Source: Escherichia coli
Lineage (GTDB): Bacteria; Pseudomonadota; Gammaproteobacteria; Enterobacterales; Enterobacteriaceae
DNA: 14,750 bases
Assembly: GCF_003334315.1 (NCBI RefSeq)
Contig: NZ_QOWR01000077.1
Reading direction: 5' to 3' (one strand)
In this document: positions 4,248-9,390 of the stretch, in pieces
Layout: the number at the start of each line of letters is the position of its first letter
Position numbering within the stretch: the first letter of the stretch is position 1
Program-made: the position numbers and the translations under genes
The notes under the pieces: model-generated
Databases searched by the model: none
What the model was told of the DNA's origin: nothing
What the model saw: only the letters and a program-made list of their open reading frames with translations

Positions 4248-4994
4248 GTGACCAAACTCAAACTTCTGGCACTTGGAGTGCTTATCGCAACGTCTGCAGG
4301 CGTAGCGCACGCTGAAGGTAAATTTTCCCTGGGCGCAGGCGTAGGTGTCGTTGAACACCCATATAAAGATTACGATACCGATGTTTACCCAGTACCGGTA
4401 ATCAACTATGAAGGCGATAACTTCTGGTTCCGTGGCTTAGGTGGTGGTTACTACCTGTGGAATGACGCAACGGATAAACTTTCAATTACCGCTTACTGGT
4501 CGCCGCTTTACTTCAAAGCGAAAGACAGTGGCGATCACCAAATGCGTCACCTGGATGACCGTAAGAGCACCATGATGGCTGGTCTGTCTTATGCTCACTT
4601 TACCCAGTACGGTTACCTGCGTACCACCCTGGCTGGCGATACCCTGGATAACAGCAACGGCATCGTCTGGGATATGGCCTGGTTGTATCGTTACACCAAC
4701 GGTGGCCTGACCGTGACTCCGGGTATTGGTGTGCAGTGGAACAGCGAAAACCAGAACGAATACTATTATGGCGTATCGCGCAAAGAGTCCGCTCGCAGCG
4801 GTCTGCGTGGCTATAACCCGAACGACAGCTGGAGCCCTTACCTGGAGCTGAGCGCCAGCTACAACTTCCTCGGCGACTGGAGTGTTTACGGTACCGCACG
4901 CTACACCCGTCTGTCTGATGAAGTTACTGACAGCCCGATGGTGGATAAATCCTGGACTGGCCTGATTTCTACCGGGATCACCTACAAATTCTGA
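4248..4994 (+). CDS. mipA: MipA, MltA-interacting outer-membrane scaffold protein (OmpV/MipA family)
   Basis: 248-aa ORF starting at GTG 4248 (MTKLKLLALGVLIATSAGVAHA-EGK, a typical signal peptide). Length and sequence match MipA as I recall it. AAGGA SD at 4234-4238. Confidence 0.93.
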   Translation: MTKLKLLALGVLIATSAGVAHAEGKFSLGAGVGVVEHPYKDYDTDVYPVPVINYEGDNFWFRGLGGGYYLWNDATDKLSITAYWSPLYFKAKDSGDHQMRHLDDRKSTMMAGLSYAHFTQYGYLRTTLAGDTLDNSNGIVWDMAWLYRYTNGGLTVTPGIGVQWNSENQNEYYYGVSRKESARSGLRGYNPNDSWSPYLELSASYNFLGDWSVYGTARYTRLSDEVTDSPMVDKSWTGLISTGITYKF

Positions 4995-5023: not shown

Positions 5024-5051
5024 TAAAAACAGGGCGTCACGCCCTGTTTTG
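5024..5051 (+). terminator. Rho-independent terminator downstream of mipA
   Basis: Stem CAGGGCG (5030-5036) / CGCCCTG (5040-5046) with loop TCA, followed by TTTT (5047-5050). An A-run precedes the stem, so it looks bidirectional. Confidence 0.7.
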
Positions 5052-6904: not shown

Positions 6905-6935
6905 AAAAAAAAGAGCGACCGAAGTCGCTCTTTTT
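6905..6935 (-). terminator. Rho-independent terminator of gapA, looks bidirectional
   Basis: Minus-strand RNA reads AAAAAGAGCGAC-UUCG-GUCGCUCUUUUUUUU: an 8-bp GC-rich stem with a UUCG tetraloop and a long U-tract, 22 nt after the gapA stop. The plus strand carries the mirror A-run/T-run. Confidence 0.8.
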
Positions 6936-7964: not shown

Positions 7965-8159
7965 CTATTTGTTAGTGAATAAAAGGTTGCCTGTAAAATT
8001 ACAAAAACCTTACGCAGCGTCAAGCGGAATCGTGTCAATCATTGCGACAAATCAATCCTGTGCCTAAGCATTACGCGACTGACTCGCCTCACTCTTCCTT
8101 TGGGCTTGAAACCACATGGGGTCGGCGCCCCGAATTTTAAAGGGCAATTACGATAAAAA

Positions 8160-8175
8160 TGTGATTTTCATCACG
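8160..8175. promoter_or_regulatory. CRP-like binding site in the gapA / msrB divergent intergenic region
   Basis: TGTGA-TTTTCA-TCACG at 8160-8175 matches the CRP core consensus TGTGA-N6-TCACA at 9 of 10 positions. It lies ~215 bp upstream of the gapA ATG and ~120 bp upstream of the msrB ATG. Confidence 0.4.
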
Positions 8176-8242
8176 ATTTAGGTGCAGCCATTTCGTCGAG
8201 ATCAAGTTTAGGACAAAATTTTGCCAGTTGGTGTTAATGTTT

Positions 8243-8251
8243 TGTTAGAAT
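8243..8251 (+). promoter_or_regulatory. Candidate extended -10 promoter element for msrB
   Basis: TGTTAGAAT at 8243-8251 (TGn + TAGAAT, 5 of 6 to TATAAT), ~43 nt upstream of the msrB ATG. A TTGCCA -35-like hexamer at 8221-8226 is 19 bp away, which is a suboptimal spacer. Confidence 0.35.
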
Positions 8252-8293
8252 CAGTCACGTAATGTGAGCACGATTAAAGTGAGATGTGAGCAA

Positions 8294-8707
8294 ATGGCTA
8301 ATAAACCTTCGGCAGAAGAACTGAAAAAAAATTTGTCCGAGATGCAGTTTTACGTGACGCAGAATCATGGGACAGAACCGCCATTTACGGGTCGTTTACT
8401 GCATAACAAGCGTGACGGCGTATATCACTGTTTGATCTGCGATGCCCCGCTGTTTCATTCCGAAACCAAGTATGATTCCGGCTGTGGCTGGCCCAGTTTC
8501 TACGAACCGGTGAGTGAAGAATCCATTCGTTATATCAAAGACTTGTCACATGGAATGCAGCGCATAGAAATTCGTTGCGGTAACTGTGATGCCCATCTGG
8601 GGCATGTCTTCCCTGACGGGCCGCAGCCAACGGGCGAACGTTATTGTGTTAACTCTGCCTCTTTACGCTTTACCGATGGCGAAAACGGCGAAGAAATCAA
8701 CGGTTGA
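8294..8707 (+). CDS. msrB: Peptide methionine-(R)-sulfoxide reductase MsrB
   Basis: ORF track gives 147 aa from 8264. I place the start at ATG 8294 ([33 protein letters not shown]..., 137 aa). It carries the two CxxC zinc motifs (CLIC, CGNC) and the catalytic Cys context RYCVNSASL. Confidence 0.95.
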
Positions 8708-8748
8708 AAAAACGATTCAGCAACTTATTCCACAGGAGCGGAAAAATT

Positions 8749-9021
8749 ATGAATCTTGATGACATTATCAACAGCATGACGCCTGAGGTATACCAGCGTT
8801 TGTCGACCGCCGTTGAACTGGGGAAATGGCCCGATGGCGTTGCGTTGACCGAGGAACAAAAAGAGAACTGCCTGCAACTGGTGATGCTGTGGCAAGCCCG
8901 CCATAATACCGAAGCACAGCATATGACAATTGACACAAATGGTCAGATGGTCATGAAGAGCAAACAGCAGTTAAAAGAAGATTTTGGTATCTCAGCAAAG
9001 CCTATTGCCATGTTTAAGTAA
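8749..9021 (+). CDS. yeaC: YeaC, DUF1315 family small protein
   Basis: ORF track gives 105 aa from 8704. I place the start at ATG 8749 (MNLDDIINSMTPEVYQRL..., 90 aa) with SD CAGGAG at 8733-8738. It lies 41 bp downstream of msrB on the same strand. Confidence 0.9.
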   Translation: MNLDDIINSMTPEVYQRLSTAVELGKWPDGVALTEEQKENCLQLVMLWQARHNTEAQHMTIDTNGQMVMKSKQQLKEDFGISAKPIAMFK

Positions 9022-9027
9022 GTGGTT

Positions 9028-9060
9028 TATCCCCTTTTTGCCGCGGTTATAAAGGGGATA
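9028..9060. other. Perfect 10-bp hairpin directly after the yeaC stop, with no U-tract
   Basis: TATCCCCTTT (9028-9037) pairs with AAAGGGGATA (9051-9060) around a 13-nt loop that contains the palindrome CCGCGG. Neither strand has a following T-run. Confidence 0.45.
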
Positions 9061-9255
9061 GCCAACAATGACCCCACGACTCATCTCAATTATCTCGCCA
9101 TGACCTGGCTAAGTCCCAGTCCGATCTCTTGCCGTCGCGTTCACGCCTGAATGACTTCTCCTGAACTTAAGTCTCAGACCTATTTGGCCGGTAATCCCTC
9201 TCGAATTTGCTCTTTTTGCGTTCCGCCTTCCACCAACCTGTAACAGACCCAGCCA

Positions 9256-9315
9256 TTTTCTGCGTAATTGTGATCTAAGTTGTAAAACGCAGATCATTAT
9301 CTGTGTTTTGCAGAT
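9256..9315. promoter_or_regulatory. Cluster of overlapping dyad symmetries (TCTGYR / YRCAGA half-sites) upstream of ydjL; candidate operator or activator site
   Basis: Half-sites TCTGCG (9260-9265, plus), CGCAGA (9288-9293), TCTGTG (9301-9306) and TGCAGA (9309-9314). They include the 26-bp near-palindrome AAAACGCAGAT-CATT-ATCTGTGTTTT (9284-9309) with 10 of 11 arm matches. The cluster sits just upstream of a TTGACC hexamer at 9322-9327. Confidence 0.3.
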
Positions 9316-9321
9316 TTAATG

Positions 9322-9350
9322 TTGACCTCAAAAATCATGTGGGTAAGTAT
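9322..9350 (+). promoter_or_regulatory. Candidate sigma70 promoter for the ydjL operon (good -35, weak -10)
   Basis: TTGACC at 9322-9327, a 17-bp spacer, then AAGTAT at 9345-9350 (3 of 6 to TATAAT). The ydjL ATG is at 9391 with SD AGAGGA at 9377-9382. The weak -10 would fit an activator-dependent promoter. Confidence 0.25.
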
Positions 9351-9390
9351 GATGGCCATCTAAGCAAAACAAAACACAGAGGATGACGCA

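Follow-up and report, generated by a model that had tools for sequence, protein, structure and literature searches.

The hypothesis that Rho-dependent transcripts carry protective stem-loops at their 3' ends reportedly goes back to Peters et al. 2012. When PNPase and RNase II meet a stable duplex, they stall on its 3' side, from a few to some ten nucleotides away. Other kinds of 3'-terminal structure are canonical intrinsic terminators, in which a U-rich run (roughly 5 U or more in 8) comes directly after a GC-rich hairpin, and REP elements acting as mRNA 3' stabilisers; small RNAs of the DapZ and MicL type derive from 3' UTRs and have ORF-internal promoters. The closest class to the hairpin described here, as set out by Dar and Sorek 2018 (NAR), comprises stable stem-loops without U-rich sequence that have a rut site immediately downstream. 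According to the same article, Rho terminates diffusely downstream of the stem-loop, and PNPase and RNase II then trim the transcript back to the protective structure.

The hairpin under study lies downstream of yeaC in a 14.75-kb stretch of DNA (the window), which is from E. coli and which, across positions 8700-9450, matches strain CP53 at 100% identity and K-12 at 98%. By open reading frames and the RefSeq annotation, the gene order is gapA (-), msrB (+, 8264-8707), yeaC (+, 8749-9021, with its TAA stop at 9019-9021), ydjL (+, 9391-10467) and ydjK, and the yeaC-ydjL spacer (9022-9390) measures 369 nt. msrB and yeaC appear to form one operon, and the co-repression of both genes by RyhB described in the literature is consistent with this. 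MG1655 coordinates (minus strand) were converted as window position = 1870723 - MG1655 coordinate, and the conversion was verified against printed sequence. In strain CP53 an IS5 upstream of, and outside, the window (comparison locus L005, 291-2980) splits dgcJ into two annotated pseudogene fragments. The stem-loop, the lack of a U-tract, the precise 3' end at the foot of the stem and a rut-like tract with bicyclomycin (BCM)-sensitive read-through together lead us to regard the hairpin, with good though not full confidence, as the protective 3'-terminal stem-loop of a Rho-terminated msrB-yeaC mRNA. Coordinates of the features are given in Table 1.

Table 1. Features of the yeaC-ydjL region, in window positions.
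Feature	Position	Strand	Basis and remarks
msrB-yeaC transcript body	8264..9021	+	ORFs, RefSeq annotation; 3' end set by hairpin
Possible -10 CATAAT	8902-8907	+	7 nt upstream of 8914
Start of ydjL 'entire 5' UTR' clone	8914	+	Primer JW10231; Adams et al. 2021 (PMC7815308)
Extended RNA stem-loop	9023..9064	+	RNA fold, K-12 fold, Escherichia alignment
Perfect 10-bp inverted repeat, 13-nt loop	9028..9060	+	Direct sequence check, hairpin search
Loop, hypervariable	9038..9050	+	Alignment; CCGCGG in window strain only
C-rich, G-poor tract, putative rut	9061..9260	+	Base composition; untranslated
Dominant yeaC 3' end, K-12	9068..9069	+	MG1655 1861655/1861654(-); two published 3'-end maps
Invariant TGTGATC	9269-9275	+	Cross-genus alignment of ydjL upstream block
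Imperfect palindrome TTGTAAAACGCAGAT-CATT-ATCTGTGTTTTGCAG	9280-9313	+	Conserved block; flagged terminator-like by scan
-35 TTGACC; -10 TAAGTA	9322-9327; 9344-9349	+	Conserved ydjL upstream block
Rho-termination peak	9535	+	MG1655 1861188(-), inside ydjL; DirectRNA-seq +/- bicyclomycin; coarse (800-nt windows)

The stem begins at the seventh nucleotide past the yeaC stop. Its arms, TATCCCCTTT (9028-9037) and AAAGGGGATA (9051-9060), pair without a mismatch around the 13-nt loop TTGCCGCGGTTAT, which holds CCGCGG at 9041-9046. The perfect 10-bp stem and the CCGCGG-containing loop that an earlier, sequence-only reading of this DNA had placed 7 nt past the stop are therefore present as described, although as properties of this allele: K-12 has C at 9028, CCTCGG in the loop and G at 9051 (four differences within 33 nt), and its stem is made of eight Watson-Crick pairs and one G.U. 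In the extended fold, an outer helix (9023-9027 with 9060-9064) is added to the core helix (9029-9037 with 9051-9059), and the U at 9028 is either bulged or paired with 9060 in an alternative register. A 45-nt RNA of the + strand folded at -19.1 kcal/mol (z = -3.8), compared with -9.9 +/- 2.4 kcal/mol for dinucleotide shuffles, of which 1 in 200 matched the native energy; the - strand fold was weaker (-14.9 kcal/mol, z = -2.6). For the K-12 allele we obtained -22.2 kcal/mol, and the same fold is printed with the same energy, and with a maximal U-tract of 1, in Supplementary Data 3 of a TRS/RNAtag-seq study (PMC10687069).

The sequence after the stem is GCCAACAATG on the + strand and AACCACTT on the - strand. 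The 8-10 nt past the stem contain one U on + and two on -, which together with the published U-tract value bears out the earlier statement that neither strand has a U-tract, and a consensus terminator scan did not call the hairpin. The window holds four distinct perfect hairpins (stem of at least 10 bp, loop of 3-15 nt) where dinucleotide shuffles predict 0.2, and the one after yeaC is the only one of the four that lacks a T-run. The other three, at 449-477, 5026-5050 and 6908-6935, all have flanking T/A runs. The first lies 3' of yeaH on the - strand and carries TTTTT; the other two are bordered on either side by A-runs and T-runs and resemble bidirectional terminators, and the hairpin at 6908-6935 is the gapA terminator present in Term-seq. 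These three look to be of the canonical intrinsic kind, which the yeaC hairpin resembles in its energy and in its location past a stop codon. It differs from that kind in having no U-tract on either strand, so that no GC-rich hairpin followed by a U run is found here, and in the Rho sensitivity of downstream transcription.

Two published maps place a dominant 3' end immediately past the hairpin. Supplementary file 1 of Adams et al. 2021 (PMC7815308), which reports Term-seq, gives 1861655(-) as a 'primary' yeaC 3' end in three table entries, with mean reads of 51,796 and 96,402 in two of them, and the TRS study (PMC10687069) independently assigns a 'Primary' yeaC terminus to 1861654/5(-). Judged by the printed flank, the end corresponds to window position 9068, the last A of CCAACAA^TGACC. 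From the GC core stem to this position there are 8 nt, and from the extended stem 4 nt. The Term-seq tables showed no second 3' end in the yeaC-ydjL spacer (18613xx-18618xx), and yeaC is absent from the TERMITe supplements. The experimental 3'-end and Rho data were all obtained with K-12, and its hairpin allele departs from that of the window at four positions. The sequence-only reading had proposed mapping of 3' ends as its check, with coverage running unchanged through the hairpin as the contrary outcome; in both datasets the dominant yeaC end lies at the hairpin.

Transcription is lost between yeaC and ydjL in a Rho-sensitive manner. The Rho-termination region tabulated for this interval in Supplementary file 2 of Adams et al. 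2021 (PMC7815308) peaks at 1861188(-), with a Rho score of 20.7 (p = 1.8e-24); reads numbered 224 upstream and 7 downstream without BCM, and 147 and 95 with BCM. The downstream signal thus amounts to about 65% of the upstream signal when Rho is inhibited vs 3% without inhibitor. The score is derived from 800-nt windows and its peak lies about 470 nt past the hairpin, so it is not proof that Rho stops the polymerases behind the 9068 end. In the same study, a fusion of the ydjL 5' UTR and ORF to lacZ, transcribed from a constitutive promoter, increased more than 2-fold in a rhoR66S strain. The forward primer of this fusion, JW10231, corresponds to window 8914-8934 inside yeaC, which places both the hairpin and all of the spacer within the cloned fragment. 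Adams et al. 2021 (PMC7815308) interpret the Rho signal differently, as transcription ending early in a ydjL leader and thereby regulating ydjL.

Base composition points to where Rho could load. The tract at 9061-9260 has 34.5% C and 16.5% G (C/G 2.1-2.2; GC skew -0.21 to -0.39), and its C/G ratio ranks first among the 2910 windows of 200 nt on both strands of the 14.75 kb. The spacer between yeaC and ydjL also has an excess of C over G (1.3-3.2), with no retention of the sequence itself, in six further strains or species (K-12, E. whittamii, Escherichia sp. E1V33, Citrobacter amalonaticus, Intestinirhabdus alba and an uncultured enterobacterium). On compositional grounds, we take 9061-9260 to be a candidate rut site.

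The sharp 3' end just past a stable GC-cored hairpin, with an energy (-19 to -22 kcal/mol) such as true terminators have, could also be explained by a non-canonical intrinsic terminator that lacks a U-tract and is possibly assisted by NusA or NusG, with the polymerase itself releasing the RNA a few nucleotides past the hairpin. We consider this unlikely. Only a single U occurs in the 8-10 nt past the stem and the consensus scan was silent. An efficient intrinsic terminator would prevent the passage of about 65% of transcription downstream that is seen with Rho inhibited, as opposed to 3% without inhibition. In addition, 8 nt separate the strong core stem from the 3' end, and hairpin-driven release is expected nearer the stem than this. 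The proposal of the sequence-only reading that the hairpin might be an RNA 3'-end stabiliser or processing site rather than an intrinsic terminator is supported by the published 3'-end maps and by the read-through in the presence of BCM.

In the protective stem-loop reading, which we prefer, ribosomes would be released at the yeaC stop codon and RNA polymerase, meeting no U-tract, would then read through the hairpin. Rho would load on the exposed C-rich, G-poor RNA of 9061-9260 and terminate transcription diffusely downstream, in the spacer or early in ydjL. The heterogeneous tails would be trimmed by the 3'-to-5' exonucleases PNPase and RNase II back to the stable stem, leaving the sharp end at 9068/9069. 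That this end arises by trimming and not by termination at that nucleotide, and that these are the exonucleases concerned, is suggested by the anatomy of the site, and the overhang of 4-8 nt at the yeaC 3' end fits the distance at which PNPase and RNase II stall. With this layout, the spacer would also serve as a Rho-dependent insulator that keeps transcription arriving from upstream out of the separately promoted ydj operon.

Compared feature by feature with the class of Dar and Sorek 2018, the yeaC hairpin shows no anatomical difference. It is a stable stem-loop situated just before a precise and dominant steady-state 3' end with no U-rich tail, and rut-like C-rich, G-poor sequence (C/G 2.19) follows directly. 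Read-through increases when Rho is inhibited by BCM, as measured in 800-nt windows that link it only indirectly to the exact 9068 end. The role of the exonucleases at yeaC would be as in the rest of the class.

The final end might alternatively be made by an endonuclease such as RNase E, cutting a longer msrB-yeaC-(ydjL) RNA at CAACAA|UGACC, with the hairpin stabilising the upstream product. The 3' end does lie in single-stranded RNA beside the stem, a processing site was among the proposals of the sequence-only reading, and Term-seq is blind to the difference between processing and termination. However, the Term-seq tables contain neither a matching downstream product nor other ends in the spacer, and the near absence of downstream coverage without BCM (7 vs 224 reads) fits termination and not cleaved read-through RNA. 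RNase E sites are expected in an A/U-rich context, whereas the sequence around this end is A/C-rich. We therefore hold endonucleolytic cleavage to be improbable; it departs from the protective stem-loop reading only in the nuclease that makes the final end.

Comparison among strains and species bears on whether the conserved entity is RNA or DNA. In an alignment of 12 Escherichia sequences (eight E. coli alleles, E. albertii, E. whittamii and two other Escherichia species), the arms TCCCCT and AAGGGGAT were invariant and the loop varied freely, with CCGCGG, CCTCGG, CCTCAG, AGCGCG, AGGTGA, AGGTAA and CGATAA among the variants across strains and species. Paired alignment cells amounted to 93.5%, against 43-66% in controls with slid partners. 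Two variable core pairs changed from A-U to G.U (in three and four distinct sequences), which fits RNA of the + strand only because the other strand would have C.A, and two pairs of the outer helix were altered on both sides. Half of the pairs are invariant, one of the aligned sequences itself supplied the structure, and the observed scores were reached by 9-10 of 500 shuffles, so that the comparative support for a + strand RNA structure is modest.

The palindromic CCGCGG in the loop of the window strain, and the position of the hairpin about 15-20 nt from the point at which ydj-containing and ydj-less Escherichia genomes diverge, could be taken as signs of a DNA-level element, either a palindrome to which a protein binds or a scar left by recombination or insertion at the edge of the ydj cluster. 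We give this the least credence of all the explanations. The stem substitutions are G.U in + strand RNA and would be mismatches in DNA or in the other strand, the hairpin is single-copy, the opposite end of the ydj cluster holds no partner for it, and Escherichia sp. MOD1-EC7003 has an intact hairpin but no ydj cluster. We also found no direct or inverted repeats joining the two ends of the cluster and none at its right junction, and in the loci examined the hairpin pattern occurred only after yeaC. A protein-binding palindrome, which the sequence-only reading had offered as one possibility, was rejected since CCGCGG varies within E. coli itself, being CCTCGG in K-12, and the loops of other species are unrelated to it.

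A search with the 49-nt element (blastn, word size 11) across 5426 E. coli genomes returned exactly one site per genome in 4334. A REP element or other dispersed repeat was rejected on this basis, as the element occurs at one place in each of the 4334 genomes and nowhere else. The hairpin resembles REP elements in being an extragenic hairpin past a stop codon that would block 3'-to-5' exonucleases, but it is single-copy and has an A/T-flanked CCCC/GGGG core that is unlike the REP consensus. Plasmid-labelled records made up 2 of the 5426 yeaC-region matches and one match to the hairpin itself, and may be mislabelled replicons.

Beyond the genus, a hairpin was present after yeaC in nearly all species. 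Across 79 Enterobacteriaceae species, the first 60 nt past the yeaC stop had a median minimum free energy of -22.6 kcal/mol vs -12.3 kcal/mol inside yeaC, and reached -15 kcal/mol or lower in 73 of them; a T-rich tail followed in 7 of the 79. The sequences are unrelated beyond the genus and yet almost always form a stable hairpin, which suggests that the hairpin is kept by turnover and not by descent. Some of the post-yeaC hairpins in other genera (comparison loci L012-L085) are REP-like GC-rich palindromes, for example GCCGGATGGCGGC...GCCTTATCCGGCCTAC in Kosakonia cowanii. Many Enterobacteriaceae genomes have one or more extra genes, about 1.3-2.1 kb in all, between yeaC and pncA or ydjL.

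The ydjL-ydjE cluster (about 9.4 kb) is polymorphic in E. coli, being present in 4331-4334 of 5426 complete genomes and missing in about 20%. It extends from window position 9079 to the end of the window and on to 22440 in the comparison locus from CP53 (L005). Relative to Escherichia sp. MOD1-EC7003, its left edge falls at 9078/9079, about 10 nt past the mapped mRNA 3' end. In about 1092 E. coli genomes that lack the cluster, yeaC is followed by a spacer of about 160 bp and then by a convergent pncA. Several other genera likewise carry the cluster between these two genes, and from this distribution loss of ydj seems more likely than gain. In ydj-less E. coli (comparison loci L001, 4323-4482; L003, 4323-4490; and L010), the post-yeaC hairpin is degenerate, with the first 64 nt folding at -9 to -12 kcal/mol and homology still recognisable (GTTATTAAGGG). 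The next strong hairpin in these strains, GGCCTACA...TGTAGGCC, is beside pncA, and the yeaC 3' UTR is probably longer there.

The spacer itself was described in the sequence-only reading as long for the region and without a convincing ORF, and this description holds: its only ORFs, of 42, 62 and 30 aa, lie in sequence that is unconserved between Escherichia species. Its length is accounted for by the hairpin, the C-rich, rut-like tract and a conserved block before ydjL that is presumed to hold a promoter and operator. This block of about 125 bp (roughly 9265-9390) is conserved across Escherichia, Citrobacter, Intestinirhabdus and the uncultured enterobacterium, and contains TGTGATCT, an imperfect palindrome with 15-bp arms and the -35 and -10 elements listed in Table 1. 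It probably represents the ydj promoter together with an operator, for which YdjF (DeoR family) and/or CRP are candidate regulators. The middle of the spacer is unconserved between Escherichia species and has indels, and spacer comparison revealed no conserved ORF or RNA between the hairpin and the ydjL block. The sole promoter-like match in the spacer (- strand, 9325-9296) was within chance expectation. An Rfam scan of 8000-9700 at E <= 10 gave its best matches to models of snoRNAs and lncRNAs from eukaryotes or archaea, at E = 3.8-8.6 and well short of the gathering score, and no model match overlapped 9023-9064. The further suggestion of a separate small transcript in the spacer found no support, given Rfam matches at chance level, an unconserved mid-spacer and the single Term-seq end.

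A transcript might nonetheless start within yeaC. The 'entire 5' UTR' of ydjL was cloned by Adams et al. 2021 (PMC7815308) from position 8914, which implies a transcription start inside yeaC at about that position, and a possible -10 hexamer lies upstream of it; our promoter scan made no call at 8902-8914. If this start is real, the hairpin would be in a 477-nt ydjL leader as well as in the yeaC 3' UTR. The same start, the -10-like CATAAT and the abundance of the 3' end could also be read as an independent RNA of about 155 nt, running from about 8914 to the hairpin and acting as a regulatory RNA of the 3'-UTR type. Such an RNA would resemble the DapZ/MicL type in its ORF-internal start and in sharing a stable mRNA 3' end, but it differs in lacking a U-rich tail of the Hfq type and a RIL-seq signature: what was found at the yeaC 3' end is neither a U-tailed terminator nor a hub of the Hfq interactome. 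In a RIL-seq-based classifier yeaC is represented solely by a 'yeaC CDS' node that has one partner and is given an sRNA probability of 0.00045, there was no Rfam match, northern evidence was not found in the literature searched, and the full-length mRNA explains the same 3' end. We think this independent RNA very unlikely. There is a small chance that the region has a more active role, either with the hairpin and the C-rich tract together acting as a conditional Rho gate on leakage from msrB-yeaC or a promoter at about 8914 into the ydj operon, or as the source of a regulatory RNA of about 155 nt that is independent of Hfq (for example, bound by ProQ). In the gate reading, the msrB-yeaC promoters are oxidative-stress and iron-regulated and ydj is a sugar-acid operon.

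Most likely, then, the yeaC hairpin is an ordinary and already mapped case of a stem-loop that stops exonucleases after Rho has terminated transcription downstream. Its 3' end and fold are in two public supplementary tables, the Rho-sensitive region has been tabulated and the class has been known since 2018; we found no individual discussion of the yeaC hairpin in the literature searched. The analysis supplies a mechanistic label for a feature that was mapped but unannotated, which matters little beyond annotation. With a protective hairpin that lacks a U-tract and, downstream of it, rut-like sequence that would shield the ydj operon, the site makes a clean textbook example of the Dar and Sorek class. 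The natural allelic variation, with its G.U pairs and free loop, and the loss of the hairpin in ydj-less lineages may offer a small natural experiment on the turnover of 3' protective structures. More generally, where an E. coli hairpin without a U-tract lies past a stop codon, the first reading should be a Rho-dependent 3' end.
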